A stretch of 64,000 bases of DNA, taken from the IMG/VR virus record IMGVR_UViG_3300011871_000003, one strand, 5' to 3'. The position numbers were made by a program, and so were the translations under genes. Position 1 is the stretch's first letter; every line of letters starts with the position of its first letter. This document shows, piece by piece, positions 1,269-31,058 of the stretch. The notes beneath the pieces were generated by a model. The model had not been told where the DNA came from. It did not search any database and worked only from the letters and a program-made list of their open reading frames with translations. Source of the stretch: an uncultured virus (IMG/VR IMGVR_UViG_3300011871_000003). Taxonomy: Duplodnaviria > Heunggongvirae > Uroviricota > Caudoviricetes.

Positions 1269-1354
1269 TTTAAGCTCCTGCGGGAGCTTTTTCATTGTAC
1301 TTCATTAGTGAATAAGTTATAATGAGACAACAAACTAACTACTATGGTAAAAAT

Positions 1355-2086: not shown

Positions 2087-2154
2087 ATAGTTGTTGTGCA
2101 CAAGTTAAGGGTATGCTAAAATACCCTTACTTTGAAACAGTAAGAGAAAATAAA

Positions 2155-2418: not shown

Positions 2419-2433
2419 TGAATGAGGAATAAA

Positions 2434-2670: not shown

Positions 2671-2691
2671 ATCAAAAAGGAATCAAATCAT

Positions 2692-2964: not shown

Positions 2965-2966
2965 GT

Positions 2967-2990
2967 AAAAAAGCCTCTTGCGAGGCTTTT
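2967..2990. terminator. bidirectional intrinsic terminator
   Basis: AAAAAAGCCTC-TTGC-GAGGCTTTT between convergent genes; same hairpin type at 8392, 16741, 30276. Confidence 0.8.
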
Positions 2991-3744: not shown

Positions 3745-3818
3745 TTTTACATCCTATATTTTATTTAATGTTATTATTAAAACATATCCGGCTATAAATT
3801 CAATAATGTAAAAAAAGA

Positions 3819-3847
3819 TTGTGCAAGATAAAGCTAAATGCTATAAT
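3819..3847 (+). promoter_or_regulatory. sigma70-like phage promoter (TTGTGC-N17-TATAAT)
   Basis: Exact 17-nt spacing with extended -10 TG; same -35 motif and spacing at 6604, 16140, 19809, 31749, 32953, 49373, 57649. Confidence 0.75.
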
Positions 3848-3875
3848 GATTGAAAATTAACATAGAGGATAAAAA

Positions 3876-4124
3876 ATGAAAACAGCATTCCAGATCACTG
3901 AAATCACATCAGGTAAAGTGCTTGGCTGTATTAGTAAAATGCAGTTAAAAATGATTAAAGAACTTATTCATGATATGAGTAAGGATGATGAAATGCACCT
4001 TGACTCTTTGCTTGATGGTTATAATAACACTAAGCATCTGTCTCTCGAAGATGTTGTAGCTTTTGGAGCAGGTGATAATACTTACAATTTCGAACAGGTT
4101 CCTTATGTTGAGGTAATTGAATAA
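3876..4124 (+). CDS. hypothetical protein
   Basis: 82 aa, GAGG SD, downstream of promoter. Confidence 0.7.
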   Translation: MKTAFQITEITSGKVLGCISKMQLKMIKELIHDMSKDDEMHLDSLLDGYNNTKHLSLEDVVAFGAGDNTYNFEQVPYVEVIE

Positions 4125-4408
4125 TGAAAAAAGTTATTGCTATTGTTTTTTTAATGATGTCCTTTCAGTCTTGGGCTTCAGCAATTATTTTAAGTGCCGC
4201 TGCAGATGCTGCTTCTTCATCAAATGAAGAAAAAAGAAAAGTGTGTGAGGTGGTTGTTTCAAACGATAAATCCACTTTTTATGATTGTGGCAATTATGTA
4301 TTGAGTTACACTCCTCAAGCAGAAGGAAGTAAATCAGATAATCCACAATATTACAGATATTGCCAGAAAAAAAGTGATGGTTCTTTAGCTGGTTGCACTT
4401 ATTTATAA
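4124..4408 (+). CDS. small secreted Cys-containing protein
   Basis: Signal peptide; TAATG overlap with the previous gene. Confidence 0.7.
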   Translation: MKKVIAIVFLMMSFQSWASAIILSAAADAASSSNEEKRKVCEVVVSNDKSTFYDCGNYVLSYTPQAEGSKSDNPQYYRYCQKKSDGSLAGCTYL

Positions 4409-4416
4409 GGTTAAAA

Positions 4417-5322
4417 ATGAATATTAAATCTGATTTTATTGAAAAGCTTAAAGAACTCATAAAAGAATATAATCTACAAAAAGGTATATCTTTAAAAGAA
4501 GTTGCAGAAAAAGAAGGGGTAATAGAAAAACTTAAAGATATTTCCTTAGAGCTTAAATCGAAAATAGAATCCATATTAGCTAAAAATAATATCTTTTTCG
4601 ATGATAGATATTATACTCTTGAAGAGCTTGAGAATATGTGTATTTTAAATAAAGAGCTTTTTTCTTTAGATATTATACGTTTTAAAGTTACTCAATGCCT
4701 TTTTAGTATTATAAATAATGAAAGTGATGAGTATATCAAACTTATTGGTAATAATGATATTCTTTGTAGCATGAAAACTAAAACATGCCGGGAATGTGGT
4801 AGTGTATATTATTATGGTTTGGATTTAAAAGAATCAAAAATAGTTCCATTTAATGGTAAGCATAAATGCGTAGAAGTTCCAGAAATTATAAAAACAAAAG
4901 TAAGAGTAAATGGGAAAATTGGTTTTTCTAATGTTATGAGAAGTTTTTCTCCAGAAGTTGATGTTAATGCTCCAATCATAAGCTCTAAACTTGGGAAGGT
5001 ATTAGAAATAAAACAATGGGCGAAACATAATATATCCAGATGTTTTGTAGGACATCAAGATCTTCATGTTTGGATGAAGGATGATGAAATCGTAGTGGGA
5101 AATATTTATAAAGATAATGATTACGAAAAAGAAATAAAAATGATGAAAGATAATGGTTATAGTGATATGGGTTATGTTATTATTGATGCATGGACTATCC
5201 ATATTTTTAATGGTAAGGCGAAAGAGGATGAGGCAAGTCTTATTATTGATACACCCTATAAAACGGTTATGGTTGAGCACAATCTGAAAATAGGCTCAAT
5301 AAAAATTACAGGATTAAAATAG
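4417..5322 (+). CDS. hypothetical protein
   Basis: ~301 aa ORF containing a CxxC motif. Confidence 0.7.
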   Translation: MNIKSDFIEKLKELIKEYNLQKGISLKEVAEKEGVIEKLKDISLELKSKIESILAKNNIFFDDRYYTLEELENMCILNKELFSLDIIRFKVTQCLFSIINNESDEYIKLIGNNDILCSMKTKTCRECGSVYYYGLDLKESKIVPFNGKHKCVEVPEIIKTKVRVNGKIGFSNVMRSFSPEVDVNAPIISSKLGKVLEIKQWAKHNISRCFVGHQDLHVWMKDDEIVVGNIYKDNDYEKEIKMMKDNGYSDMGYVIIDAWTIHIFNGKAKEDEASLIIDTPYKTVMVEHNLKIGSIKITGLK

Positions 5323-15219: not shown

Positions 15220-15585
15220 ATGAAAGTTTGGATCGATGATGAACGCAACCCTAAAGATTATCTTTCAGAAAAAGATGCTGAAAGTGTTATTTGGATTAAA
15301 GAAATTCGTGAAGCATTGAATTTATTTCTAAAGAAATCAGAAGAAATTGAAGTTTTGTATCTAGATTATTACATGGATAGTCCTGTTATTTTTGGTTCTG
15401 AATTTGTTTTCTATGCAAAACGCGGTGGAAAGAAAATGTTTCCTAACCTAAAATCTATTTATCTTCATTCAAACGATGATGATGCTATTGATGAACTAAT
15501 GGAATTAGCTCCAAATTTAGAAAATCAAGGGATTAGTCTCGAAGTTGCGCCTTATCGTAATAAAAAAGGAAATTGCCGTGGATAA
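15220..15585 (+). CDS. cyclic-phosphate-processing receiver-domain protein (copy 1)
   Basis: KVWIDDERNP, LYLDYYMD, IYLHSND motifs. Confidence 0.6.
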   Translation: MKVWIDDERNPKDYLSEKDAESVIWIKEIREALNLFLKKSEEIEVLYLDYYMDSPVIFGSEFVFYAKRGGKKMFPNLKSIYLHSNDDDAIDELMELAPNLENQGISLEVAPYRNKKGNCRG

Positions 15586-15937
15586 TAAAAATATCTGGAT
15601 TGATGATACACGTAATCCTCATCATTTTTTGCCAAAAACAGAAGCAGAAAATGTTTTGTGGTTGAAAAATATTCGCCAAGCTATTCAGTATGTATCAGAG
15701 CATTCAAAAGAAATTGAAGTATTATATCTTGATTATTATATGGATGATAACTTTCTTTTTGGTTCTGAATTCGTTTACGAGGTTTTATACAGTGGACGAG
15801 AAGGATATCCTCTGCTGAAAACTATCTATCTACATTCCAGTGACGACAATGTTATTGAAGATTTAATGCAACATGAAGAAGAATTTAAAGAAATGGATAT
15901 TTCTTTAGTTATTGCCCCTTATCGCAGAGATTATTAA
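15578..15937 (+). CDS. cyclic-phosphate-processing receiver-domain protein (copy 2)
   Basis: IWIDDTRNP, LYLDYYMD, IYLHSSD; GTG start after AAGGA. Confidence 0.6.
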   Translation: MDNKNIWIDDTRNPHHFLPKTEAENVLWLKNIRQAIQYVSEHSKEIEVLYLDYYMDDNFLFGSEFVYEVLYSGREGYPLLKTIYLHSSDDNVIEDLMQHEEEFKEMDISLVIAPYRRDY

Positions 15938-16765: not shown

Positions 16766-17155
16766 TTAAGATATTGCGGTAAATCTTTTCCCAACTGGAC
16801 TAAAATTCATTTTTCCCCAAACAGGAAAAGCAAGAAGAAATTCTTTAGCAAACTCTTCAGTGCGTTGGAAAAAGGTATCGTCATCTTTGACATCAGGAAC
16901 ATCCCAAAGCTCCCCTTCATAAAAATGATCACGAACTTCACTATTTTTGTTATGAATTAAAAATAAAACTGCACTATATTCATCAACAATTTCTGTAGTT
17001 AGATAAACTCCATATTTTTTTGCTATTTCACGACTTTTTGGTGCATCAATGTAAGTTTTTTTTACATGTTTGGCATAATCATATATATCTTCCTCTTCAT
17101 CTCCACCACCAATATTAACAAAACGATTAAGTGTTGCACTAGTCCAAAGTCCCAT
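16766..17155 (-). CDS. hypothetical protein
   Basis: 129 aa, AGGAG SD. Confidence 0.7.
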   Translation of the reverse strand: MGLWTSATLNRFVNIGGGDEEEDIYDYAKHVKKTYIDAPKSREIAKKYGVYLTTEIVDEYSAVLFLIHNKNSEVRDHFYEGELWDVPDVKDDDTFFQRTEEFAKEFLLAFPVWGKMNFSPVGKRFTAIS

Positions 17156-17343
17156 ATTTTATTCTCCTATTTATTTTATTTGAGTTATTTTTGTATAGAT
17201 ATAGTATTTTATTTTTCACAAAAAATAAAATTTAAATTTTAAACAAATTGTGATATTGAATAATGCTTATTGATAATATAAATTTACTTTTTTATTTCTA
17301 TGATGTTAGAATATATAAATTAAATAAAAAATGAGGTTTAAAT

Positions 17344-17523
17344 ATGAATAAAAGAATCGCATTAAGAGGAAAAAAGATAAATAAAATAGAATATATTGGA
17401 GTTCCATTATCTCATGATGAAATTAAAAGAAGACAAAAGATAGTGGATGAAAATAAAATAAAGGTTTTATCTAACACATCAGGTATACCATTAAATATAT
17501 TAAAAATATTTTTTCCTGATTAA
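17344..17523 (+). CDS. small basic hypothetical protein (59 aa)
   Basis: Manual translation MNKRIALRGKK...; GAGG SD. Confidence 0.5.
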   Translation: MNKRIALRGKKINKIEYIGVPLSHDEIKRRQKIVDENKIKVLSNTSGIPLNILKIFFPD

Positions 17524-17620
17524 ATAAAAAATCTATTATTGTAAAAAAACTTGTACAATATAGCATACTTTGCTATTATTCTTGTTAGGGGGTTCGATAC
17601 TCTTTCACAAACACCAAAAA

Positions 17621-17716
17621 AAGCCGTGGCAAGCTGATAGATGCGCGAATGATTCGAATAAGGGATAATAGTAGAGCGCATAATCCAGTATCCCTGAGAA
17701 ACCCGAAGCGGCTTTC
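17621..17716 (+). ncRNA. candidate structured leader RNA (possible pseudoknot)
   Basis: AAAGCCG/CGGCTTT closing stem; crossed internal pairings ATGCGC/GCGCAT and AGGGATA/TATCCCT. Confidence 0.4.
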
Positions 17717-17744
17717 ATCCATAAAAAACCTAAAAGGATATCCA

Positions 17745-18485
17745 ATGCGAATCAATAAAACCTATAACTTAGGATCAGATGAAAACATATCCAATCATAT
17801 CCTTGAAGGAAATGTAGAGGTCTCTTGCATTTCTCCATTTTTAAATAACCTCTCGTTCAGTCTGACTGAACTTAAAAATTTTCACGAAGTAGAGCCAGAA
17901 TACATTCAAGTTGATTTTGATAGATGGCAAAAAATTGTAGATAACAACAAAACTTGTTTAGTTGCTTTCTCTGCTATGCGAGAATTAAAGAATTTTGCAA
18001 AAGATGATATTTATTTTGAAGATAATGGGGTGTTAAGCATTTCTTTCCAAAAAGAAAAGCAGGGTAAAGATAAAGCGTTAGCTGTGGCATTGATGATGCC
18101 TTTTGGTATTATTGAACAAAAAGAAAAGGTAGAAGCAGAAGATAAATCAAAAGTAAATTCTGGATGGGTGCTTGAAGAAGGAGCTTTAATAGCAACAAGT
18201 TTTGGAATGAAAATTATTATTGAAGAACCTTTAAAGATTAAGATTTTTTCAATGATTTCAGAACACGTCAATCAGTATATCGATGCTGTTGAAGAAAACG
18301 TAGAAAGAACATTAAATAAATATTCTCCATTCCTTCGCTTGATGAAAGTCCAAGAACACATGCCAATAATCAGGGAGATTGTTGAGGAAGTTTATAAGGA
18401 AGAAGCTGGTTATTATTATGATGAGAATAAAGTTGGTGATTTAATGAAAGATGTATTAGGTATGAAAAATATCCGATGCATTTAA
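17745..18485 (+). CDS. hypothetical protein, paralog family A (copy 3)
   Basis: GNVEVSCISPFLNNL and IFSMISEHVNQYID match the 510 and 1355 ORFs; AAGGA SD supports start 17745. Confidence 0.8.
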   Translation: MRINKTYNLGSDENISNHILEGNVEVSCISPFLNNLSFSLTELKNFHEVEPEYIQVDFDRWQKIVDNNKTCLVAFSAMRELKNFAKDDIYFEDNGVLSISFQKEKQGKDKALAVALMMPFGIIEQKEKVEAEDKSKVNSGWVLEEGALIATSFGMKIIIEEPLKIKIFSMISEHVNQYIDAVEENVERTLNKYSPFLRLMKVQEHMPIIREIVEEVYKEEAGYYYDENKVGDLMKDVLGMKNIRCI

Positions 18486-18521
18486 CTTTTTTCTATAATA
18501 ATAATAATAATAAGGTTTATC

Positions 18522-18914
18522 ATGACTAATACCAGACAAGATAATATATATATGCATGCTCATGGATTTTGTAATATTTTTGCTATCTATGCTTCAAAAA
18601 TCAAAAAGCTAGAATGTCATGCTATTATTCGATATAGTGATGAGACCATTGACGATATAGGAGAAGGATTTCCTATACTGATTCATGCTTTTCTCAAAGT
18701 AAATGATAAGTTAGGATTTGATGCTTATGGTTTTAGATCTATAGAAAAAATTTACAACGACTATGGTGAGCCAGATGATTACACTTATCATTTGATCGAA
18801 GATGCTTATGACTTTCTATGCGAAAAGAGCACAAGAGATTGTTTTGGAACTCTTTCACCATATCAGATTAACAAGCTGACAATACCTTTAATAAAGTCTT
18901 ATTTTCTTAAATGA
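18522..18914 (+). CDS. phage hypothetical protein
   Basis: 130 aa; G.C.IFA...HAF...DAYG motif. Confidence 0.7.
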   Translation: MTNTRQDNIYMHAHGFCNIFAIYASKIKKLECHAIIRYSDETIDDIGEGFPILIHAFLKVNDKLGFDAYGFRSIEKIYNDYGEPDDYTYHLIEDAYDFLCEKSTRDCFGTLSPYQINKLTIPLIKSYFLK

Positions 18915-18978
18915 AATGATAAAATTAGAAAAGCCAATACTAGTGTATTGGCTTTTATGTTAGATATAACGTTTTAAG

Positions 18979-19266
18979 TTATACTTCTTGCATTTTTGAC
19001 TCAAAAATATTTAAAAAGGCACGACGTTCAGAAGGACGATATAAATCAAACTCGTATTCTTGTGAGTTAGCCCAACGATCAAAATCAGATTTTGAACAAC
19101 TAAATTGAGCAGAACCATTATCAAGAAAACGAATCAAACAACTTCCAAAATCAAGTGAATAACGTTCTTCTTCGCTAATACCTAACCATTGAAAAAGTTC
19201 TTCTAATGGCATTTTAATATTTTTACGACAAATCTCAAAAACACTCATTTCAATTTCATTTTTCAT
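18979..19266 (-). CDS. hypothetical protein
   Basis: 95 aa, GGAG SD. Confidence 0.7.
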   Translation of the reverse strand: MKNEIEMSVFEICRKNIKMPLEELFQWLGISEEERYSLDFGSCLIRFLDNGSAQFSCSKSDFDRWANSQEYEFDLYRPSERRAFLNIFESKMQEV

Positions 19267-19472
19267 ACACGATTCTCCAATTAAAGTTTAATTAAAGAGT
19301 CGTTAGCTCAGTATGATTTTTTACATCAGAGCTATAATAAAATAGATGAGGTGTGAGAGTCAATAGATTTTTATAGTTTAATAAAACAAATAGTTGTTGT
19401 ACATCTGACACATTCTTGTTATACTATTTTTTGATTTTATGTTTCTAACTATAACTTTTATCAGGAGTTTTT

Positions 19473-19790
19473 ATGAAAAAAATATTTATGGCTTGTCTTA
19501 TCTGTGCATCAATTTTTGCTTTATCTGGTTGTGAAAAGAGAACCGAAGAAGCAAGCAGTAACTTCATTTTGCCCGAAGGTATGAAAGATTGTGTTATTTA
19601 TAAAATGAATAATGAAAGTGGTATTGTAATCTATGCTATCCGCTGCCCTCTTTCAACTACAACTACAACGATGTTAGGTAAAGTAAATAGTCAGGTAGTA
19701 GTAACAGAAGAAAAAACTAAAGTAGAAACAGCTCCAGTAAAACCTAAAGAAGAAATTGTTGTTAATGGCAAGCATTTTATTGAGAAATAA
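19473..19790 (+). CDS. lipoprotein
   Basis: Lipobox LSGC after a hydrophobic leader. Confidence 0.75.
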   Translation: MKKIFMACLICASIFALSGCEKRTEEASSNFILPEGMKDCVIYKMNNESGIVIYAIRCPLSTTTTTMLGKVNSQVVVTEEKTKVETAPVKPKEEIVVNGKHFIEK

Positions 19791-19883
19791 GAAATAGCAT
19801 AAAAAGAGTTGTGCATAATAATAGAATCAGCTATAGTGGTTTTATAGAGATATCTAATAAAATCTGATTTTGAGGAAAAATAA

Positions 19884-20261
19884 ATGATTAGTATTCATGA
19901 GTTTAAAAATGTAAAACAGTTTGAAGAAGCTATAGAAAAAGAATTTAAAAAGAAAATCTTTCCAATTTCCAAAAAATGGGTCGTAGGTGGTCAAGAAGGA
20001 GGTTCTTGTTGGAATGCAGATCATCATCATTCAGTTTCAGCCGAACCAGAGCCAGAAGATCCAATGGTATTTATTGAATTACTTGAAATGGTTTGTCCAA
20101 ACTTAACATTTTTACAATTTAAAAAGCTTGAGCAGAAATCATTATGGGATATCAGTGAAAAAACTAATTATGAATATTATGGTAACTCCACTGATTATAT
20201 GATTAAAAAGTTGAATACTCAAAATCTGTTTGATGGTTTAAAAGAAATTATACCAGAATAA
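19884..20261 (+). CDS. phage hypothetical protein
   Basis: 125 aa; GG..GGSCW and EYYGN motifs. Confidence 0.75.
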   Translation: MISIHEFKNVKQFEEAIEKEFKKKIFPISKKWVVGGQEGGSCWNADHHHSVSAEPEPEDPMVFIELLEMVCPNLTFLQFKKLEQKSLWDISEKTNYEYYGNSTDYMIKKLNTQNLFDGLKEIIPE

Positions 20262-20273
20262 AAAGGGTTTAAT

Positions 20274-20684
20274 ATGAGAAATATTAAAGTTGTTTTCTAT
20301 GTTGGTTTACCCGGATCAGGGAAAACAACTTTATTATCAAAAATAAAAAAAGGTTTTGTCATTGATGATTTTTCTTTAAATATTGACAAGTTAAATGCTT
20401 TCAAAGCTTCAGAAGAAGAAACCCTATATATTGCTGATCCAATGTTGTGTACGGTAACTATGGAAAAAGCAGAAAGTTCTTTAAATAAAATGTTATTGGG
20501 ATTAATGATAAAAGAAACAGAATGGATTTTTTTCGAAAATAATTTAGAAAATTGTTGGTATAACGTTGAAAACCGTAACGACAATAGAGAAATTAATAAA
20601 GGTTTTATGGAGTATTTATCTAAAAAATATAAAGAAAATTATAGTTTAGAAAATACAATTGCTGTATATAAAAAGGATAATTGA
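20274..20684 (+). CDS. P-loop kinase-like protein (polynucleotide kinase/AAA_33-like)
   Basis: VGLPGSGKT Walker A at the N-terminus; C...V..R lid-like segment. Confidence 0.6.
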   Translation: MRNIKVVFYVGLPGSGKTTLLSKIKKGFVIDDFSLNIDKLNAFKASEEETLYIADPMLCTVTMEKAESSLNKMLLGLMIKETEWIFFENNLENCWYNVENRNDNREINKGFMEYLSKKYKENYSLENTIAVYKKDN

Positions 20685-20692
20685 AAAAGTTC

Positions 20693-20721
20693 TTGCACTA
20701 CAGATAGTGTTTTGCTAGAAT
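20693..20721 (+). promoter_or_regulatory. promoter at the start of the RNA cluster
   Basis: TTGCAC-N17-TAGAAT with extended -10; further promoters at 21129 and 21434. Confidence 0.65.
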
Positions 20722-20747
20722 CATTTCTGTAGTGACAAGTAAAACGT

Positions 20748-20821
20748 GTCTTTGTAGCTTAACGGTAGAGCAGGAGTCTCTAAAACTCTGGATGTGGGTT
20801 CGATTCCCTCCATTGACACCA
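20748..20821 (+). tRNA. tRNA with CUA anticodon (amber suppressor candidate)
   Basis: Cloverleaf with GGAGT-CTCTAAA-ACTCT anticodon arm, TTCGA T-loop and encoded CCA; two U-U mismatches in the acceptor stem and one in the T stem. Confidence 0.75.
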
Positions 20822-20826
20822 AGAAT

Positions 20827-20976
20827 AGGAGAAGCATAGGCACACATTTTCTTAGCTAGCGCTGGTGAAGTTAATGTGGAAGGTAGGTATCCTTTGGTCT
20901 ATGAATAAAGAACAATGTTGAGTCGCTCTCAATAATGTTATTTATCAAGTGAGGTTCGATCCCTCTACTCCTGCCA
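20827..20976 (+). ncRNA. 150-nt tRNA-like RNA with enlarged D and anticodon arms
   Basis: AGGAGAAG/CTACTCCT acceptor-like stem, GAGG-TTCGATC-CCTC T arm, G-CCA end; CATAGGC/GTCTATG and TTGAG/CTCAA stems. Confidence 0.6.
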
Positions 20977-20980
20977 TATT

Positions 20981-21065
20981 GCTCTGATGGTGGAATCGGT
21001 AGACGCGGCAGACTCAAAATCTGTTACCGAAAGGTGTGAGGGTTCAAGTCCCTCTTGGAGCACCA
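20981..21065 (+). tRNA. tRNA-Leu(CAA)
   Basis: Class II cloverleaf, GCAGA-CTCAAAA-TCTGT anticodon arm, long variable arm, CCA. Confidence 0.95.
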
Positions 21066-21078
21066 AATTATGTATTTA

Positions 21079-21113
21079 ACTTCCGGGGTACATCTAGGGT
21101 GACTTCCGGGGTA
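21079..21113. repeat. 12-nt direct repeat ACTTCCGGGGTA x2
   Basis: Copies at 21079 and 21102, just upstream of the 21129 promoter. Confidence 0.7.
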
Positions 21114-21211
21114 AAGTAGAAAAAGTTGTTGATTTTAAGCAGTTAAGTTGGTATATTGTAGTTCTTGAAGTAAAGAAGACTGGTTAAAACTCTAGCTTTT
21201 TATTATTAAGT

Positions 21212-21404
21212 GGATGAAGTCCCGGACTGACGGGAAAGTGTAAGACCTGATGGGAAGTAGATATCGCTGGACGTAATCGGTTAAGTAAGCACGTTGTAAT
21301 CCAGCACTGTCCCAATAAAGCTCCTGTGAAATCTTCGCCCCGGTGAGACTCCGGTGTTAACTAGCAGGTGTTATAGACAAGCTGGAGATCAGTGCCAGCC
21401 ATCC
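21212..21404 (+). ncRNA. structured ncRNA with tmRNA-like termini
   Basis: GGATG/CATCC terminal stem, 5' GGACTGACGGG, 3' GAC followed by GCTGG-loop-CCAGC T-arm-like hairpin; no CCA. Confidence 0.4.
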
Positions 21405-21666
21405 TAAAAAATAAGAAAATAGTAAAAAAGTAGTTGATTATGAGTTTGGGTTTTGGTAAGATGTAGTTCTTGAGGCGGCAATGAGTAGTAATGAAATTCC
21501 ACTACATTGTCTGTAAAGAGCAGAACTTTGAAGCCTCCTTTAATAAAATAGAAAACCTGACCGCTCTGCGATGCCGTAGGGCGAGTGATTAGGATAAGGC
21601 ATACTGCGTTTCGTGGGTGTTTTGTTTAAAGGCGAGAGAGGAATAATCATAAGCTCTCAAAACAAT

Positions 21667-21812
21667 GTCGTATTAGTTTAGTGGTAAAACAGAAGGCGTA
21701 GTCCGAAAACGTAGGTTTAATTCCTGCACTGTCCCAAAAGGAGAGTTGGCTGAGTGTTATAGCGCGGATAGTAGTTCTTCAAGTCTCAGGTTCGATTCCT
21801 GAAACGACACCA
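21667..21812 (+). ncRNA. double-tRNA RNA: a tRNA frame enclosing a circularly permuted second tRNA
   Basis: Outer GTCGT/ACGAC-A-CCA, D arm, GAAG/CTTC, T arm; inner TCCG/CGGA, GTAGG/CCTGC T arm, ACTGTCC/GGAGAGT acceptor, GCT/AGC D arm. Confidence 0.65.
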
Positions 21813-21860
21813 GATATTAGTAGCTAATACTATTATCAAAAAGAAGTAAGGTATTAAAAA

Positions 21861-22055
21861 GCTATTCAAGAGCACCCTCGTTTTAACATCAGTCTCGTAA
21901 ACTGATTAGAGTTAAGCGATTCTGTCGAAATACGTGAGATAGAGTTAACTGGTAGCCCTTCATTGACGCGGATTCGCCTCTGCTGAGAAGATTATAAGTA
22001 TTATTGCGTGATACGATGACTAAACTACCTATATGTTAACAAAGCTTGAATAGTT
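21861..22055 (+). ncRNA. candidate structured ncRNA
   Basis: GCTATTCAAG/CTTGAATAGT long closing stem; ORF-free. Confidence 0.4.
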
Positions 22056-22068
22056 TTAAATTAAAAAA

Positions 22069-22158
22069 TATCAGCAGTTGTTGGAACCAGTGAGGCGTTC
22101 TCCGAGTAATCAGGAGCGTAAACCTTACACCAGTCAGGTTCAAATCCTGATGCTGATA
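22069..22158 (+). ncRNA. tRNA-like RNA lacking a canonical D arm
   Basis: 8-bp TATCAGCA/TGCTGATA stem plus TCAGG-TTCAAAT-CCTGA T arm. Confidence 0.55.
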
Positions 22159-22676
22159 CAAGAATGCGTTCGCGTGTTCAGTTTCTGACTAAGGAGCGAT
22201 GACTCCAACCTAATTGCCAGTTAAATGTTCTGGTAGCTGGTGGAACAGCAAACAAAAAGTTACGTTTCTAAATAAAATAGACGGGGACGGGAAACTTAAA
22301 GCTAATGTCTAGATGGGGCCAGTTTTAGAATCTGGCATGTAGGTAAATCAGATTTCTTCCAAAGTAATTGGATTTACCAATCAAAAATACCTGATGTTGC
22401 GATCAGGGGCATTTTTATAAAAACGAGAGAAATCGCTGAGTGTTTGAGATATTTAAAGCCTCAAACTTCCTCGAACGCCACAAAATTTAAGTTGTGGTCC
22501 TTGCGTTAGAAATATCTGCGGGATAGCTTTTCCAAAGTGAAGTTTCTCAGCCGTCCAACTTGATAGCCCGAATGTGTACGCTTTGCTCGATCCAAAAGGA
22601 TTCTTGTTTAAAGATAATCATTCATTATGGGCAAATGATAGGGATACTGTCGTTTCGACGGGAGTTATTCAAGAAT

Positions 22677-22924
22677 TAGTGCTGTTCTTTAAACTAGCAC
22701 TCGCTTATAGGGTACTCACTATAAGTGTAAATTAATGAGTATAGCTTATAACTGTAGCATAAAAGGTTATAAGCGAATATTATCTGAATGCAGGTTGATT
22801 GCTATAGCGCTTGACGTAATCAATAACAAAGTTGGGGTGAGACTCCCCTTCTTTTCAAAAGGAGGTATAGTGTCTTGCTTCTTTAAATCGACACTCTTGC
22901 CATAGAAAGGTTACTCGCTATGGA
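22677..22924 (+). ncRNA. two copies of a double-hairpin RNA motif
   Basis: 22677-22727 and 22868-22924; shared TTCTTTAAA and GGT(T)ACTC loops with covarying stems. Confidence 0.5.
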
Positions 22925-23157
22925 ATAACAAGAAAAGAGGATGTCTTAGCCGGACTGAAGGCTTAGCGCCAGCCTGTTAGCCTATTAGGGCTGGATTGCG
23001 AAGTAGGAAAAGGCAGGTTGTCTTCAAACCGGTGTAGAAGGCAATATCGGCTCCTTTTCTAATTGGAAAGGAGTTTTATTTTACAAATACATAGACGTTA
23101 ATCAGTTGTTTTGTGGGAAGCCCGTAGCTGCTTCTGATCAGAAGCTCCCACTAAAAA

Positions 23158-23250
23158 GATTGTAAAAGTTGTAAGTTAAGATGGTCCAGACCTACGGGAG
23201 TGTTGCCCTTGATCAGGCATTAATGGTTCGAATCCAACGCTTTTACAATC
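23158..23250 (+). ncRNA. tRNA-like RNA with long terminal stem
   Basis: GATTGTAAAAG/CTTTTACAATC stem enclosing a TGG-TTCGAAT-CCA T-loop hairpin. Confidence 0.5.
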
Positions 23251-23333
23251 AAATTATAAAATTGGTTTTAAAAAGAAGAATAAATATAAAAAAGTATTGT
23301 TTTTCATAAAAGTTTTAGCTATAATGTTTTCAT

Positions 23334-23397
23334 TGGTTAGGGCGTGACGGAGTGCTTTAAGTAGCGCTGGGGTTCAAGTCCCTACATAAACTAATCA
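23334..23397 (+). ncRNA. minimal or degenerate tRNA-like RNA
   Basis: TGGTTAG/CTAATCA stem, AGTGCT/AGCGCT hairpin, GGGG-TTCAAGT-CCCT T arm. Confidence 0.4.
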
Positions 23398-23450
23398 TAG
23401 GAAAAGACTAATATACATCCCTATCAGAGATAGGCAGTGTTTTCCGCAAT

Positions 23451-23535
23451 GCTCCGGTGGCGAAATTGGTAACCGCATTAGGTTTAGGTCCTAACGCCGC
23501 AAGGTTTGTCGGTTCGAGTCCGACCCGGAGTACCA
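23451..23535 (+). tRNA. tRNA-Leu(TAG)
   Basis: Class II cloverleaf, TTAGG-TTTAGGT-CCTAA anticodon arm, CCA. Confidence 0.95.
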
Positions 23536-23539
23536 AACT

Positions 23540-24120
23540 CAAAAGAATAACAGGTGAGACTGATGCTGTTATATCTTCATTTTTCTGTCTGGTTTGAGTT
23601 CCAAAAAGACAGACGGGTATAAGTTCGCTGAAGACGAAAAGGAATGCGAATGTTGACTGGCAGCTTGAACCAGTAGGTGACAACCTTCACCGTTAACTTA
23701 GTCAGATGGTTACAGTTAGTTTAGAGTGTTTATTCGAGTGCCGTCGAGCAATCTCCAAATGCTTAAAACTAAGAGAAGAACGTAGCTATGGCTAACCACC
23801 AGATGCTATAAGCTATAGCCACAAGATAAAGGCCCACTTCAAGCCGTGGTTGAAAAATTTATTAGGGAAGTATAGGGTGGTTCCTTGTTCCCGATTTCTG
23901 TTAGCTTTATTATATGTAACTATTTCTGGTATATGTGATATAAGCTCTCAGAGCCAAGTGAATCCGTAAGCTAATACGGTATGGTTGAGCAGACATGATG
24001 CTGTTGATATTGTTATCCGCAAAACGAATTTGCAACTCGTAAGCGTCTCCATAAACGGCAGTTAAGTAGGAGAATTAGCCCCTACCACTTGTAACTTGAA
24101 ATATCTTAAAGGAACATCTA
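23540..24120 (+). ncRNA. candidate large structured ncRNA(s) downstream of tRNA-Leu
   Basis: ~580 nt without a credible ORF, GC-richer than the coding DNA, many hairpins; boundaries approximate. Confidence 0.4.
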
Positions 24121-24148
24121 CGACTTTAAGGTAAAAATGAAGTAGAAA

Positions 24149-24440
24149 AGAGGAAGTTGGTTATACCATCGTGTAAAAAATCTTGTTTATTTAGTATCAG
24201 GTCATTATAAAGCGAACAAAAAATGACTGAGAAAAGGGACTGGCCCTGACGGATTTTGCGACGAATCGTGAAGCTTCCTCTAATTTGAATATTTAAATAA
24301 ATTAATAGTTAGATAAAAATAAGTTGGCGTTAACGCGCTATCGTAAATGACTGAGGCAAGTATTTGGTAATCACAAAAGCGAACAAAAGATTACAAAGAA
24401 AAGCACACTCTACGACGAATCGTAAAATTTTATAAACTAA
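24149..24440 (+). ncRNA. tandem pair of a ~130-nt structured RNA motif
   Basis: Shared AAGTTGG, AAAGCGAACAAAA, GAAAAG, CGACGAATCGT in the same order; covarying stem GTCATT/AATGAC vs GTAATC/GATTAC. Confidence 0.6.
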
Positions 24441-24542
24441 TAGGATTTTTTAAAATGTTTAAAAATGTTTGTGTAGCTCCTGCCAACATGGGGCATTAGT
24501 CTGGAACAAGCGAAGCCGGGGATGACTATAACCCGGACCATT

Positions 24543-24643
24543 GGTTGTTGGATAGCTGGACACTATGACAGGCGATAAAACAGGTAGCAATACCCTATTG
24601 TGTAGGCTGTTAAGGGCAGGTTCAAATCCTGCGGCAACCACCA
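24543..24643 (+). ncRNA. tRNA-like RNA with CCA end and non-canonical core
   Basis: GGTTGTT/GGCAACC-A-CCA acceptor, GCAGG-TTCAAAT-CCTGC T arm; no standard D or anticodon arm. Confidence 0.6.
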
Positions 24644-24667
24644 CTTCAAAACATGAGAGGTTTTACA

Positions 24668-24892
24668 ATGAAAAAAATCACTCCACATCTGGTAAAAAAG
24701 TTATTCTCAAGAAAATCTCCTCAAAAAAGTTACAACGAGAAACGTTTATTTAAAGCTCTGAAAGAAAATCAAGGAACCTATACCATTAATAAAGATGGTA
24801 TTGTTAAGCTTGATCTAAGCAATCCATTAACTCAAGAAAGAATAATTGAGCAAATAAATAAATGTGGAAATATTAAAACAGAGAGAGCTTAG
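24668..24892 (+). CDS. small hypothetical protein
   Basis: GAGG SD; ends in TAG followed by a terminator-like hairpin. Confidence 0.6.
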   Translation: MKKITPHLVKKLFSRKSPQKSYNEKRLFKALKENQGTYTINKDGIVKLDLSNPLTQERIIEQINKCGNIKTERA

Positions 24893-24979
24893 GCTCTCTT
24901 TTTTGCGTAAATAAATAGATTGCAAGAGATAACAACAATATGTATAATAGCTCAACATTAATCTAAAAAGGTAAAAATA

Positions 24980-26344
24980 ATGACTCTGACCGTAGTAATT
25001 AAACATAATGGTAAAGTAAATAAAGCAGGTAAGTTGAGCGTTATTGATGAGCAAGGAAAAACATTGCTTTCAAAAATTCCTGTAGCAATCCCATTAAAAC
25101 TAAGCAAGAGTTCTTTAGAATATAGCTGTATGGCTAAGGTAATGTCTTTTAATCTTAATAGAGACTTACTTAAAGAAACCTTTAAAGATATCGAAAAAGA
25201 TAAAACGCAATATAAGAATGCGTTTAATGATTTTACAGAAAACGGTATCAATAATAGCTTTATTGTAGCTAATACTATTGTTATTGCTTGTGATCAAGTA
25301 TTGGTAAATGATGAAACAGCTTTCATTATTAAAGATAAAGATTTTAAAACTTTAGTATCTATTCTTTCTCAAAGTGGTAAATCTTTTAAAGTTGAAGTTA
25401 AACATTCATCGTTTATGTTCTTCTTGGAAGATGTTTCTGATTATCAGGTAAAAAATGTACAAGATTTTTACTTCAAAATGCAACAAGAAGAAGTAAATCT
25501 GTCAAACAAAGTTAAAGTTCTGAAAGAAAAAGAACAGCAAAAACAGAAGATTATTACTAAAGTTTCTCAAAAAAATGTAGTTAGTCAGAGGAATAATTTT
25601 GACACTGATCTACTAAATGACCTACTAACTTTTTATAATCCAGAGTTGGCATTAATGTTTAGACCACATTCTACTCTTGCGTGGTTCTTATACTTTAATG
25701 ATTTAGGTGATAATATTAATCAACGTATCATTGATGATAATATCCATAATATTTCTGGTTTTGAAAATGTAGCTTCGAGTGAAGTACGTCATAATCCAGA
25801 GGGTTACACTGTCAAACTTTTTGATGACGTAGATAAAACAAATGAAGTTGGTGTATTGAAGTTTGATACAGCAACTAATTCATGTGAGCTAAAAACTGAA
25901 ACAGGTGAGAAAAATATTATTGTTCCTGATGAATCAGGCAAATTGAATGTTGAGTTTATTTCCAAAAATGGAAGCTCAACAAGTCTGGAAATGGTTCAGG
26001 ATGGTGATAATTTTATTGGTAACTGGCAGACAAATCAGGTTGGAACAGCTCTTGGCGCTGGATTTACATTAGATAGTTCTTTTGATTTTTGTTCTAATGT
26101 AGGAAAAGCAAATGATCTTTCGGGTTATCTATATGTTCCTGAGAAGGAAGTAGAGCAAGAAAATTTTGTAGCTCCTGTAGAGGTGGAAAAAGAAGTTATT
26201 AATCATCAAGCAAGCGTTGTTGAAGATAATAATGTATTCAACCAAACAGTAAGCCCTAGCTATGAACCTGTATACGAAAGTCCAGTTCAAACATCAGCAA
26301 CAGATAATAGTTCTTGGGCGAGTGCTGATCCATATTCAAACTAA
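24980..26344 (+). CDS. hypothetical protein
   Basis: 454 aa, low-complexity C-terminus. Confidence 0.8.
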   Translation: MTLTVVIKHNGKVNKAGKLSVIDEQGKTLLSKIPVAIPLKLSKSSLEYSCMAKVMSFNLNRDLLKETFKDIEKDKTQYKNAFNDFTENGINNSFIVANTIVIACDQVLVNDETAFIIKDKDFKTLVSILSQSGKSFKVEVKHSSFMFFLEDVSDYQVKNVQDFYFKMQQEEVNLSNKVKVLKEKEQQKQKIITKVSQKNVVSQRNNFDTDLLNDLLTFYNPELALMFRPHSTLAWFLYFNDLGDNINQRIIDDNIHNISGFENVASSEVRHNPEGYTVKLFDDVDKTNEVGVLKFDTATNSCELKTETGEKNIIVPDESGKLNVEFISKNGSSTSLEMVQDGDNFIGNWQTNQVGTALGAGFTLDSSFDFCSNVGKANDLSGYLYVPEKEVEQENFVAPVEVEKEVINHQASVVEDNNVFNQTVSPSYEPVYESPVQTSATDNSSWASADPYSN

Positions 26345-26377
26345 AAAAAAGAAAAGGGGGCTATGCTCCCTTTTTTA

Positions 26378-26956
26378 TTATATGTTATACCTATCTTTAA
26401 CCTCATTATATTTTCTTCCCTCACTATCCAAAATATCTTTGTCCCAATATTGTTCTAATATATTTATCATTTCTTCTGGCAACGGATAGACTGAGAATAA
26501 GTTATGGGCATTATAGCAATGATGTATTAAAGGCCATTTTTCACAACGAGCTAAATGAACAAACTGAGGTGTAAATAAAATATTAGGATCAGAGCCTTTT
26601 CCCAATAAAAGTTTCAGACCTGATATTCCATGCTCTAAATGACTTTGCCATACTCCGGGACAATAAATAAAATTAGTTAATGCAGTTCTTCCATATTTGT
26701 CTTGAACATTAACATTAATGTTTTTATGCGTTAAAACATACGCTATTAAATCATTTGAGATGGACAAGTCATAATGATATGGATTTAAAGTAAGTAGATG
26801 AAGTATGGTGCTACCTAAATCTGTTAATGGTTTATTCGGATCAAGAGAACTCCAATTAAGATAGGAACATCCCGCATCTAATAGTATTTCTCTAATGAAA
26901 TCTTCTTCTGTCCATTTAGATTTTTTACGTGCCAGCTCTAATGATATTGTATTCAT
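26378..26956 (-). CDS. ankyrin-repeat protein
   Basis: GSTILHLL, NVNVQDKYGRTAL, LKLLLGKGSDPN motifs. Confidence 0.75.
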   Translation of the reverse strand: MNTISLELARKKSKWTEEDFIREILLDAGCSYLNWSSLDPNKPLTDLGSTILHLLTLNPYHYDLSISNDLIAYVLTHKNINVNVQDKYGRTALTNFIYCPGVWQSHLEHGISGLKLLLGKGSDPNILFTPQFVHLARCEKWPLIHHCYNAHNLFSVYPLPEEMINILEQYWDKDILDSEGRKYNEVKDRYNI

Positions 26957-27111
26957 AATAACCTCTTGTATTTTATTTCATCATTTTATAATAAAGTTTT
27001 TAGTTAAATCAAAAATAGAAAAAACAACATTTTATTTTGTGATAATGGATGGGAAAATGCCTGAAAGAGTTGCAATAAAAAAGCCTGCTTCAGCAGGCTT
27101 TGAAAATAACA

Positions 27112-29461
27112 TTAAGAATAAATAACTTTAAGATAACGCTCAAGCATAAGTTTCATAGAGAAGTTTTCTATAATATGCTTATATGCGCTCTCTGCTCTTT
27201 CTGAGACTGTTTTGTAGTTATAAACAGTAAAAGACATGGCTTCATGTAATAACATCGCATCAGGCTTTTCAGGAAGCAGAATACCTGTCTCATTATTGAT
27301 TACTTCTTTGGTGCCACCACTGTCATTTGTAATACATGGCAGTTTACAAGAAGCACTTTCTAAAACCATATTAGGAGAACCTTGATGAGTTCCTAAAATA
27401 ATAATAGAGTGGTAATCTTTCATGATGCTGCGAGGATCATCAATATTCCCCTTAAATTTAACAACTTCATTTTTAATCAAATCTGAATAATCAGAGCATA
27501 GCTTTTCGTAATAAGAAATATTATAGGGTTCAACACTACCATAAAAATCAATACAAACATTTTTATTTACCTCATACAGCTTTCTAAAAGCTTGTAGGAT
27601 AGTCTCAATATGTTTGCTTTCAGTAATACGTCCACATACTAAGAATTTAAATACACCATCAACACCGGAGAGTGTTTTTACATATTCAGGCATAACAGGA
27701 ACACCATTAGGAATAATAACAGTATCTTGTTTAAGATGTTTTTTATAATCTTGGTCTAAATGAGAGTTATCAAATTTAGAAACAAAAGTCTTAATGTTTT
27801 CAAAATACGGTTCTTTATTGAAGTAAATAGNNNNNNNNNNAAATAGCTTCTTGGAAAGCAATTTGATTATCCATTTCATTAAAACAATAATCACCGGGAC
27901 TAACATCGATAATATCTACATAATGTCCAGCCAGTTTGCTTAACAGGAGTTTAACTTTAGAATCGACATTCCAAATAATAATACGATTGATTTCATTTTC
28001 AAAGATGTATTTAAGAAGGTTTGAGCCAATAGTAAAAACATCGATATGAGAATGACACAAATAATGCTCAATTTTTTTATCAATAATCTGCTTGTAAAAA
28101 CCAGTATAGTTAGACTGATTAAGTAGGATTAATGGGATATGGATATCATTATCCTTCATTTCTGAAAGAAGGTTAACTAAAGAGCGTTGAGCACCACCTA
28201 AGTTTAAATTCGATGTCAAAAAAGCGGGCTTGATTTCTTTATTTTTCGGTTTATTTGGAATAAAGTTAAACAAAGACCAAACATTATGACTACCATATGT
28301 AATGTGATTGATAAGGTTTTTATTTTCATCATTCATTGTGACACGTTTAGAATGATTTTCTTCAATAAGCGTAGCAATATGCTCTACAAGTTTTTTATAC
28401 TCGTAAAGTTCTTGAGATTTATCATAATCAACATCATCAGAAGTTAAATCAATACTAAGATTTTTGGTATCAATGTTATTTAAAGCTTCTGGAATATCAA
28501 AAAAGTGAAGTTGTTTATTATTATCAAAAATTTCTGACTGACCAGAAACATTTGATACCACCATTTGTAATCCGTTCATAATAAACTCTTGTGTTGCCAT
28601 AGATAGACCTTCAAAATGGCTAACATTAAGGCCAATATCAAACATATTTAACCATTCAACAGCATTATCTTTGAACCCCGGTAATGTAATATTTTTTTGA
28701 ACATTAAGAGTGTTTGCTTTTTTAAGGATATCAAAGTAAACAGGCATGTTGGATTGTTCAAATCCACCAAGAATAACCAGTTTATAACGTGGATCTTTTC
28801 TTGATAAGTGAGCAATAACATCCAGAGCTAAGAAGTAGTTTTTTTGTAAACAAATGCGCCCTGTCATACCAATAACAATATCGTCATTTTTAAACTTAAA
28901 ATGATGGCGATAAGTATCACGAGTTTTAGGGTTAAATTGAAAATGCTTATAAATAATCTGATGACGAACAGTGAAGATTGTTTTATCAGTTACTTCTTTG
29001 AGTTGTTTTGTTACATATTTGCAAACGGAAATCAAAGAAATAACTTGAGGATGATTAAATACTTCTTCTGTATTACTCCAGCCTTTTTTATCATTATGAA
29101 TAACAATATGAAGGTTTAGACCTAAGCTAAAAAGATAATGAGAAATCTTATCATTGATTAAATGGCAAACAAGAGGCTTGCCATCAAAAGCAACCTGTTT
29201 TAATAACATTTCACCATTCTCAATTTTATTGTTCAGCCGAACAATATTCACATTTGGAGGAATGGAATGTTCTTGATTTTTATCATAGATAACAAAAAGT
29301 GTGACTTTATGTGGTGCTTTCTGATAAAAGTTAGCCCACAATTGGTCAGATACGATTTTCTCTGCGCCACCAAGATTAAGGCTTGTCAAAAGAATGTAGA
29401 TATGGTCTTTTTCTTCTTTGAAAGCTGGAAGCCAAGATTCTTGATTGATAATGTTATTCAT
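27112..29461 (-). CDS. glycosyltransferase with two tandem GT4 (GT-B) modules, split by N gap at 27831-27840
   Basis: Two LNLGGA(E/Q) starts; GRICLQKN and GRITESKH; EGLSMATQE and QGSPNMVLE; the two track ORFs join across the gap. Confidence 0.85.
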
Positions 29462-30299: not shown

Positions 30300-31058
30300 T
30301 TATTTGGTATTTAAGAATGTTAATTTATTTGTTTTTTCATCAAAATTAGCAAGAGTAAAAGTATCATCCAAGAACATTGTATCAATCCATACCATATTAT
30401 GATGAATAAAAGGTTCAGTAACACCTACATGACCGTGGAAAATATAGTCAATCCCTTTAATAGCTTTAAATGTATTAAGAACATTTTCTTTTTCTTGTCC
30501 TCCTTCATTATGCGCATTTCTTAACTTACGATGCAGATCTACATCTTGATATAGCTGTTCTCTATAATCAGGATCTTTTTTAGCAAGTTTAATAATATCA
30601 TTCCAATTTTCCGTATTCTCATACAAAAGAGGAGCACAAGCATGAATAACACCAAACGTCTTACCACGATGATGAACTTCAAGAATAATAGGAAATTTTT
30701 TAACAATAAGGTCAGTAAAGTATTTCACGCCTTCCCAACCCAACTGTTCAAGTGTTTTATCTCCACCATTACCCATGTAAAGCCATAAATCTCTGTTATA
30801 AGGTTCATGAACATTAATCATCATTTCTTCATGATTACCAATAACAGCATGGTAATTAGGTTTATGAAGGAAATCAAAAAGCAAAGGAGCTACCCCGTTG
30901 CCACGGTCAATAAGATCTCCAACAGCAATAATGTAATCGCCTTCCACAACTCCAGCAATTCCTATAGCGTCATTAAAGTTTTTATAGTCTCCATGAATAT
31001 CTCCAATAAAAAAGAGATTAACGTCATCTGGAACAACTATTTTTTTATGTATAATCAT
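30300..31058 (-). CDS. serine/threonine protein phosphatase-like metallophosphoesterase (NinI/PphA-like)
   Basis: GDIHG, GDLIDRG, GNHE, HGH and IDT motifs. Confidence 0.9.
   Translation of the reverse strand: MIIHKKIVVPDDVNLFFIGDIHGDYKNFNDAIGIAGVVEGDYIIAVGDLIDRGNGVAPLLFDFLHKPNYHAVIGNHEEMMINVHEPYNRDLWLYMGNGGDKTLEQLGWEGVKYFTDLIVKKFPIILEVHHRGKTFGVIHACAPLLYENTENWNDIIKLAKKDPDYREQLYQDVDLHRKLRNAHNEGGQEKENVLNTFKAIKGIDYIFHGHVGVTEPFIHHNMVWIDTMFLDDTFTLANFDEKTNKLTFLNTK

Follow-up and report, generated by a model that had tools for sequence, protein, structure and literature searches.

The 64,000-nucleotide stretch of DNA described here, referred to as the window, derives from an uncultured virus of the Caudoviricetes (IMG/VR record IMGVR_UViG_3300011871_000003) and holds, between positions 20748 and 24643, an island that lacks coding capacity and is present as RNA in strong excess over the neighbouring genes. 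The RNA nature and the expression of this island are well supported. Its sequence is made up of three true tRNA genes, a series of tRNA-shaped modules and at least two long non-coding RNAs (ncRNAs), RNA C and RNA D. The explanation tentatively preferred is that of a tRNA and ncRNA operon cluster, in which the tRNAs and the tRNA-derived modules would be cut by host tRNA-processing enzymes, with the release of RNAs C and D. A first-pass annotation, made from the letters and a list of open reading frames (ORFs), had read the region as an RNA island dominated by tRNA mimics, serving as decoys or scaffolds that protect translation. Its view of a non-coding island with tRNA-shaped elements has stood, whereas the most abundant product (about 23.63-24.43 kb) has turned out to be no tRNA mimic.

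The window is AT-rich (31% GC) and crowded with short ORFs, mostly without a known family. The island departs from this composition, with a GC fraction of 0.37-0.44 against 0.26-0.31 in the flanks (about 29%). No ORF of at least 100 aa occurs in 20700-24700 under the standard code, in keeping with the earlier statement that no credible ORF is present; alternative codes, with TAG, TGA or TAA read through, were tried and rejected, having given no convincing island ORF. All island features are on the + strand, and three permissive scans spanning the whole island returned no Rfam family other than tRNA at E values up to 10. The window belongs to a giant phage of about 340 kb, as is shown by two relatives: a near-identical IMG/VR contig of 341,648 bp (G001, the same as G003) and a more distant one of 388,594 bp (G002), with 37% amino-acid identity across a 702-aa protein. 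In the G001 genome the island is the largest ORF-free block of raised GC content.

ARAGORN and Rfam agree on the three cloverleaf tRNAs counted at first sight, all on the + strand. These comprise a tRNA with the anticodon CUA, of the amber suppressor type and with an encoded CCA (20748-20821; 59 bits in Rfam), a tRNA-Leu(CAA) (20981-21065; 51.1 bits) and a tRNA-Leu(UAG) (23451-23535; 53.9 bits). T-arms are more numerous than these genes. The T-loop word GGTTYRANTCC matches nine times in the 64 kb, always on the + strand and between 20797 and 24629, where 0.24 matches are expected from shuffles and none of 100 shuffles reaches nine; a looser T-arm scan of the window adds one at 20950 and finds zero on the - strand. 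The acceptor stem of the CUA tRNA has two non-canonical pairs (U-U mismatches), the score still being 59 bits, and a second CUA tRNA is found in G001 at 174814-174888. There is no sign of TAG recoding within the window, the stop codons of its 67 ORFs being TAA (53), TGA (11) and TAG (3). A 12-nt word, ACTTCCGGGGTA, occurs twice directly 3' of tRNA-Leu(CAA), at 21079-21090 and 21102-21113; an additional copy, nearly the same in sequence, is inserted behind 21078 in the strain of sequencing run X19.

For each orphan T-arm, a pairing partner of the 7 nt behind it was sought on the 5' side, and the element was folded at minimum free energy (MFE). Six tRNA-like elements (TLE-1 to TLE-6), all on the + strand, have been delimited in this way. 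TLE-1 (20827-20976) has an acceptor-like stem with 6/7 pairs, two long internal hairpins, a T-hairpin and a G-CCA end; its MFE fold closes with the acceptor and the T-hairpin (z-score -2.2), and it is called by neither Rfam nor ARAGORN. TLE-2 (21666-21812) contains two degenerate tRNA bodies, each with a T-arm, under one closing acceptor-like stem (6/7), and ends in CCA. TLE-3 (22070-22158; z -2.3) combines a 7-bp acceptor (7/7), a small D-like hairpin with GG and a 5-bp T-arm with an anticodon arm lengthened to about 43 nt and ending in a 9-nt loop. In TLE-4 (23162-23246) an acceptor of 7/7 pairs, extendable to 9 bp, is accompanied by a T-loop on a 3-bp stem, and a tRNA-Sec match of 17.4 bits falls below the Rfam gathering score of 47. 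TLE-6 (24543-24643) has a 7-bp acceptor (7/7), a D-arm with GG, a 5-bp T-arm and an A-CCA end, with a 43-nt arm bearing a GCAA-capped hairpin in place of the anticodon arm. The weakest of the six, TLE-5 (23334-23397), is a small stem-closed element whose closing stem stands 6 nt away from the T-hairpin, so that no tRNA-type acceptor/T minihelix is formed.

An acceptor stacked on a consensus T-arm, with 6-7 of 7 pairs, is therefore present in TLE-1, TLE-2, TLE-3, TLE-4 and TLE-6, and the T-stems of TLE-2, TLE-3 and TLE-6 are fully paired (5/5). Of the six extra elements with a T-arm and an acceptor-like stem that had been proposed, five are borne out and the one at 23334 is not a true minihelix; the three said to end in CCA are TLE-1, TLE-2 and TLE-6. 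None of the six reaches the gathering threshold of the Rfam tRNA model RF00005 (29 bits), the best matches being two within TLE-2 (23.7 bits at 21673-21728 and 20.1 bits at 21746-21803, both covering model positions 7-64), and the other five elements gave nothing from this model at E values up to 10. ARAGORN in its default mode calls none of them, and local alignment among the modules detects similarity at the level of the T-arm only. Searches for a tmRNA (ARAGORN and RF00023) found none, and for Y RNA-like molecules (YrlA) there was neither an Rfam match in the island nor a TROVE/Ro domain among the 67 window ORFs in Pfam. The tRNA-shaped elements are real, and their cores are not tRNA cores.

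Between these modules lie predicted transcription signals and the longer RNAs. The several internal promoters suspected earlier correspond to three predicted sites of a common sigma-70-like form, AAAAAGT..TTGwTT-N17-TAnnnT, on the + strand: P1 (21120-21157; an A-tract and TTGATT-17-TATATT), P2 (21424-21462; TTGATT-17-TAAGAT) and P3 (23288-23325; TTGTTT-17-TATAAT). The word GTAGTTCTTGA (repeat family D8) is found downstream of both P1 and P2. Upstream of the first tRNA, the candidate P0 (20681-20708, + strand; TTGAAA-16-GATAGT, 9/12 of the consensus) is weak, since promoter-like sites are no commoner than in shuffles. Terminator-like sites number 13 in the region against 3.3 expected, and the island is subdivided by P1, P2 and P3 together with one strong terminator. 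Segment F (21470-21665, + strand), which is covered by RNA contigs, lies between P2 and TLE-2, and segment G (21813-22069, + strand) lies between TLE-2 and TLE-3. RNA C (22161-23085, + strand; about 0.9 kb) has its 3' end at an 11-bp terminator-like hairpin followed by a T-run (23049-23085). RNA D (23630-24430, + strand; about 0.8 kb, with estimated ends) is the most abundant RNA of the island. A putative promoter of its own, TTGAGT-18-TATAAG, can be read by eye at 23594-23623, and a module of about 50-60 nt, AAAGCGAACAAAA...CGACGAATCGT (repeats D6 and D19), is present twice in its A-rich 3' half. No Rfam match above 11 bits was obtained for RNA D, and its small ORFs (a 39-aa TTG ORF at 23850-23969 and ORFs of 7-8 codons starting MTE) have no ribosome-binding site and no conservation signal. 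The idea that it could act as a GGA-motif sponge for CsrA was dropped, with about 13 GGA per kb counted by eye against about 17 expected from composition.

Smaller elements accompany these RNAs. The window has exactly three instances of the word GGTGAGACT (21342, 22836 and 23553), always in the island and on the + strand; the hairpins noticed earlier near 21343 and 22837 are 4-bp hairpins at the first two of these sites, while at the third the word sits in the loop of a hairpin followed by a T-rich run (23549-23570, + strand). The first belongs to module E (21165-21405, + strand), a dispensable RNA module in which CCGG-TGAGACT-CCGG forms a hairpin at 21340-21354. Two of the 'GTGAGACTCC' modules are dispensable in sister strains. 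The two dispensable modules share, at 21261-21354 and 22804-22848 and in the same order, ATAkCGCTkGACGTAATC and then a TGAGACT-loop hairpin, and it may be that both derive from one small RNA cassette, mobile or modular in nature.

Public sequencing runs have provided the evidence for transcription. Among the 24 listed runs, 20 runs belonging to 13 studies contain at least half of the sampled island words, six of them being recorded as RNA. Four of these six (X15, X17, X19 and X20), one per study, were compared over 17000-28000. In three of the four, from three studies, contig depth at 22.2-24.7 kb exceeds that of the flanking genes by factors of 10 to more than 1000, and it climbs stepwise along the island in the same order in X17, X20 and X19. 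In X17 the flanks have depths of 0-38, rising to 99-113 at 21.0-22.1 kb and to 2,888-5,121 at 22.1-23.6 kb, with a peak of 208,790 in the bin 23606-23972 and 180,004 in the bin 23973-24339; thereafter the depth falls to 2,335 at 24340-24706, to 0 at 24707-25440 and to at most 19 beyond. In X20 the flanks are mostly at 7-32 (a few bins being zero to low), with 264-341 at 22.1-23.2 kb, 1,413 and 14,994 in the peak bins (23606-24339) and 14 beyond; the parts left uncovered, for example 23239-23605, are no evidence of absence. In X19 values of 563-697 are followed by 3,655 and 1,732 at the peak and by 13 further downstream. RNA C contigs have depths of 341-5121 across these three runs, against flanks of 0-38 in X17, 7-32 in X20 and 2-130 in X19. 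In X15 the depth is even, at 13-96 in covered bins, and resembles that of DNA. The peak, at about 23.63-24.43 kb, corresponds to RNA D and not to a tRNA mimic. A lack of stable transcripts had been named as the observation that would reduce the elements to decaying pseudogenes; what has been found is island RNA far above its neighbours. Loose contig ends at 21835 and 22221 (X20) and at 23499 (X19), seen in a single contig each, resemble what is presumably a library adapter and, if this is right, would mean fixed fragment ends.

The mechanism that could account for these observations begins with + strand units that would produce RNA rather than protein and contain three tRNAs, five or six anticodon-less modules and long ncRNAs between them. 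The modules keep those parts of a tRNA that enzymes recognise, namely an acceptor on a T-arm, a T-loop, often the GG of the D-loop and sometimes an encoded CCA. Host RNase P on the 5' side and RNase Z or exonucleases on the 3' side would cut at the modules and at the true tRNAs, which would free and cap RNA C (about 22161-23085) and RNA D (about 23630-24430), and both would then accumulate, RNA D to very high levels. Cutting is suggested by the kept acceptor/T-arm minihelices, the CCA ends, the placement of modules at RNA borders and a weak hint from contig breaks. The best reading is that the modules act as cutting signals, as stabilising signals or as products themselves. The promoters and the exact RNA ends are inferred, as are the cleavage at modules and the functions of RNA C, RNA D and the modules.

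A number of observations weigh against this explanation. With its putative promoter and a hairpin upstream, RNA D may need no tRNA-like 5' signal. The hint from contig breaks, in which the listed contigs of X17, X19 and X20 stop at 22078-22133 and resume at 22198-22298, around TLE-3, with X15 running through, is of a weak kind; the comparison covers the longest pieces, with 667 further pieces, so that the break may be incomplete. The depth figures are mean word depths of contigs, from which neither ends nor strand nor exact levels can be read, and the choice of runs was based on their content of island words; the contrast within a run between separate contigs is nevertheless very large and recurs in three studies. 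Sliding-window folding of the island gives z-scores mostly from -3 to +1, close to 0 over RNA D, and RNAalifold on RNA C and RNA D finds no pair changed on both sides. Searches of G002 by nhmmer and tblastn detected no homologues, whether of the island RNAs, of the modules or of the flanking ORFs. This distant relative has mimics that fill a unit of their own, which speaks for such modules as products and not only as punctuation. Finally, G001 differs from the window at 3/801 positions in RNA D and at 49/1365 in the next gene, a contrast indicating that mosaic recombination confounds any argument from conservation, the more so with only two lineages available.

The strain comparison itself has included four copies of the region, namely the window, L002 (the copy in G001), L039 and L040, which fall into two lineages. 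Conservation is limited to near-identical strains, with no deep conservation. The block is kept in all strains of the 20 runs and 13 studies holding at least half of the sampled words. Relative to L039, differences are few in segment F (3/196 positions), TLE-2 (1/147), segment G (1/257), TLE-4 (2/87), TLE-5 (0/63), TLE-6 (2/100) and RNA D (16/801); they amount to 12/400 and 10/222 in the 5' and 3' parts of RNA C, to 12/85 in tRNA-Leu(UAG) (likewise in L040), to 20/242 in the 79-aa ORF after the island and to 47/1365 in the neighbouring gene for a 454-aa protein. TLE-3 is identical (0/91) in all three other strains. Over 21470-22160, which encloses TLE-2 and TLE-3, the total is 5/691, against the 47/1365 of the 454-aa gene. 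The changes in tRNA-Leu(UAG) are mostly paired and lie in the D and anticodon stems. For L039 substitutions falling in the window's MFE pairs, 17 keep and 7 break the pair on the + strand (17/24), against 11 and 14 on the - strand (11/25), an excess that is suggestive and not decisive. The hairpin at 22966-22993 has a G-C to A-U double change together with an A-U to G-U change.

Modules are also gained and lost among these strains. Module E (about 21116-21404) is missing in L040 and partly replaced in the X19 and X20 strains, the stretch 22662-22862 inside RNA C is missing in L039 and L040, and the window is without 16 nt of segment G that the other three strains have. In L002 a 1.7-kb IscB/HEARO element (L002:10869-12579) is inserted at about window 21143, the 5' edge of module E; its HEARO RNA scores 137.3 bits and precedes the gene of an IscB-type protein of 431 aa that has RRXRR and HNH domains. 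HEARO (RF02033) and IscB are absent from the window, and their presence in a relative marks the island as an insertion-tolerant site, the element being no part of the finding. All three relatives have about 0.5 kb extra at 23252-23288, which in L002 (14704-15207) holds a 109-aa ORF without a Pfam family; a loose contig end at 23251 in X19 fits a strain with an insertion of about 0.5 kb.

Beyond these strains, the lineage offers a view of related elements that bears on what the modules might be. G001 has 34 ARAGORN tRNAs with a skewed set of anticodons (10 CAU, 7 Leu-UAA, 6 Arg-UCU, 2 CUA and few others), which fits the AUA, UUA and AGA codon use of the phage, and a further 21 T-arms lie outside the called tRNAs, all 55 T-arms being on one strand, that of the tRNAs. 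In G002 a promoter-to-terminator unit at 264.5-265.1 kb (L032:4568-5120, - strand) encodes three tRNA-like RNAs that lack an anticodon and are about 100 nt long. Each has a hairpin inserted into the D-loop, and between the paralogues both this insert and the acceptor stem differ by compensating changes. Thus tRNA mimics are a recurring, selected feature of these phages, each of them young or fast-evolving. Six further genes of 119-135 nt in G001 and G002 (L016:1040-1173, L015:3368-3497, L017:799-929, L018:1507-1625, L015:2939-3057 and L018:2532-2666, all on the - strand) pass the Rfam tRNA threshold with 33-56 bits and carry inserts of 36-61 nt in the anticodon loop. Removal of the insert leaves plausible anticodon loops, for example Gly-UCC, and the inserts may be small tRNA introns of unknown kind. 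The motif GGCTATG-N6/7-CTTCCTTCTA occurs in G002 in the inserts of two Gly tRNA-like genes (L016:1040-1173 and L015:3368-3497) and again directly after a tRNA mimic (L032:4860-4885, - strand). A sub-threshold tRNA-like match of 23.5 bits has also been recorded at G001:58179-58236, in an ORF-poor stretch of 36% GC corresponding by offset to about window 50.8 kb.

These data give some weight to the decoy idea of the first-pass annotation, according to which the modules would themselves be the products, stable tRNA mimics that occupy or mislead proteins binding the tRNA elbow or the acceptor end. This is possible, if on the unlikely side, and the same guarded estimate applies to the targets proposed for such mimics, which might be host defence nucleases directed at tRNAs, toxins that attack the acceptor end, or enzymes of processing and modification. 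The parts that make up the elbow (T-loop and the GG of the D-loop), the acceptors and the CCA are kept, with the anticodon arms exchanged for longer stable helices in TLE-3 and TLE-6, which is unlike random decay, and the dedicated G002 operon with its compensating changes and the 21 additional T-arms of G001, all on the tRNA strand, agree with this. So do the RNA-repair and anti-RNase genes of the window, and the known countering of tRNA-cleaving defences by phage tRNAs (PMC11464382, PMC11555353, PMC10264068). However, the cases known are decoding-competent tRNAs whose anticodon loops evade cleavage, whereas a module without an anticodon loop cannot replace a cleaved tRNA and would be a poor decoy for anticodon-loop nucleases. 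Moreover, the modules of the window are each one of a kind, G001 having no paralogue of them and G002 no homologue, and the module-rich 21.0-22.1 kb have the lowest depth of the island, small structured RNAs being poorly captured in such libraries. A role of the modules as punctuation of longer transcripts and a role as mimic products are not mutually exclusive.

A less likely reading takes the modules for tRNA pseudogenes, in decay or rearranged, within an accessory region of high plasticity, and the RNAs for by-products of strong promoters, with no selected function. The heavy duplication of tRNA genes in this lineage (10 CAU, 7 Leu-UAA and 6 Arg-UCU in G001) would supply the material for decay, TLE-2 resembles a fusion of two tRNA bodies, and near-identical strains gain and lose modules, as with module E, 22662-22862, the IscB/HEARO element and the 109-aa ORF insertion; the missing G002 homologues and the unremarkable folding z-scores point the same way. 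Against decay, the acceptors are still paired at 6-7/7 and the T-stems of TLE-2, TLE-3 and TLE-6 at 5/5, substitutions are few in TLE-2 (1/147) and TLE-3 (0/91), and those on the + strand favour the keeping of pairs. The RNA, furthermore, exceeds that of neighbour genes by orders of magnitude in three studies, and the block has been kept in all strains of the 20 runs. A bolder proposal, which is likewise to be regarded as doubtful, takes RNA D, with its weak structure, A-richness and repeated modules, as the first of a class of extremely abundant phage RNAs whose role would be to titrate an RNA-binding factor or a nuclease of the host. The anticodon-less modules with their lengthened anticodon arms would be a dedicated, fast-evolving family of mimics against tRNA-directed defences, in line with the 21 orphan T-arms of G001 and the separate mimic operon of G002, and both would make up an RNA-only counter-defence locus.

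That some modules are unconventional decoding tRNAs, containing introns or having 8/4 or 9/3 geometry, is very improbable: ARAGORN does model TLE-2 as a tRNA(UUA) with a 72-nt intron in its intron mode and TLE-6 as a tRNA(GUA) with a 24-nt intron at a lowered threshold, the six insert-bearing genes of G001 and G002 offer a precedent, and the 9-bp-capable acceptor and 3-bp T-stem of TLE-4 recall the 9/3 tRNAs of PMC5389517, but the modelled TLE-2 loop has G and not U at position 33, TLE-3 yields no 7-nt loop by any simple excision, no group I intron or other Rfam family matches, and the four RNA runs contain no splice-like joint inside the modules (contigs can miss rare or small spliced forms), their only three joints being strain deletions or replacements.

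The genes around the island place it in a phage for which conflict at the RNA level appears relevant. A Pfam scan of the 67 window ORFs identified, at 54217-55353, 43095-43487, 15220-15937 and 30300-31058, an Rnl1-like RNA ligase, an RnlB-like antitoxin domain, two cREC_REC proteins of cyclic-phosphate processing and a metallophosphoesterase, and this set of RNA-repair and anti-RNase genes indicates that such conflict belongs to the biology of the phage. Downstream of TLE-6, according to ORF and terminator scans, a 79-aa ORF (phrog_9843, of unknown function) and a terminator-like hairpin at 24880-24899 close the unit (24653-24899, + strand). The 454-aa protein adjoining the island has two relatives, P0004 (75% identical) and P0007 (40% identical), and for an adjoining 136-aa P-loop protein a PDB search gave matches at the P-loop level only, with E values of at least 0.07. 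At the upstream border, contigs of X19 and X20 connect 19790 to 20684 through 35 other letters, so that this strain is without the island-bordering ORFs 19884-20261 and 20274-20684. A metagenome scan for relatives found two loci, each with 97% identity, two GTDB scans found nothing, and a search of a phage collection gave matches at the tRNA level only; six other contigs that matched the repeat-motif pattern were rejected as chance matches by BLAST.

Unexplained stable RNAs have accompanied phage tRNA clusters since the RNAC and RNAD of T4, large phages have repeatedly yielded tRNA-shaped RNAs that lack an anticodon, and the island constitutes an unusually rich case. About six mimic designs occur in it, its three real tRNAs can serve as internal controls, and it has an extremely abundant long RNA seen in at least three studies. 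The phage is present in many public runs, including some labelled as isolates. Were its host known, this locus would allow a test of whether such mimics serve as signals for cutting, as decoys or as both, and of what role RNA D has.

Among the known systems closest in kind are RNAs of T4. The tRNA-like ends of T4 RNAC and RNAD are cut by RNase P. Both, also known as species 1 and 2 RNAs, are described in PMC3014915 and PMC9697503 as small stable RNAs of unknown role from the tRNA region, and on that description the island is similar in placing putative stable RNAs or mimics beside true tRNAs in a phage tRNA cluster. The island differs in the number of its modules, five or six, and in its additional RNAs of 0.8-0.9 kb, the phage is unrelated to T4 at the DNA level, and the likeness is one of description and not of sequence, Rfam having returned no family of the RNAC/RNAD type. 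GOLLD and ROOL, presented in PMC5737381 (see also bioRxiv 10.1101/2024.12.08.627333) as large ncRNAs that are often near tRNA genes and in prophages, resemble the island RNAs as large non-coding RNAs near tRNA genes. The first-pass annotation had drawn this comparison, and membership is not borne out, with no match to either family at E values up to 10 in the three whole-island scans; RNA D, with little predicted structure beyond that of shuffles and an A-rich, repetitive 3' half, is not ornate. Plant-mitochondrial t-elements and the mascRNA at the 3' end of MALAT1 are tRNA-like processing signals of eukaryotic or organellar origin. The modules are like them in placing a non-decoding acceptor/T-arm unit at the border of a longer RNA, as TLE-6 separates RNA D from a small ORF and TLE-3 precedes RNA C, cleavage being in this case a prediction. 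Phage tRNAs that counter tRNA-targeting defences such as PARIS, retron effectors and PrrC (PMC11464382, PMC11555353, PMC10264068) share with the modules a tRNA shape and a phage origin, here in a genome that also has RNA-repair genes; those tRNAs decode and have altered anticodon loops, whereas the island modules have no anticodon loop. The island appears to belong with the stable RNAs and tRNA mimics of phage tRNA clusters, among which it is set apart by the number of its mimic designs and by the abundance of RNA D.

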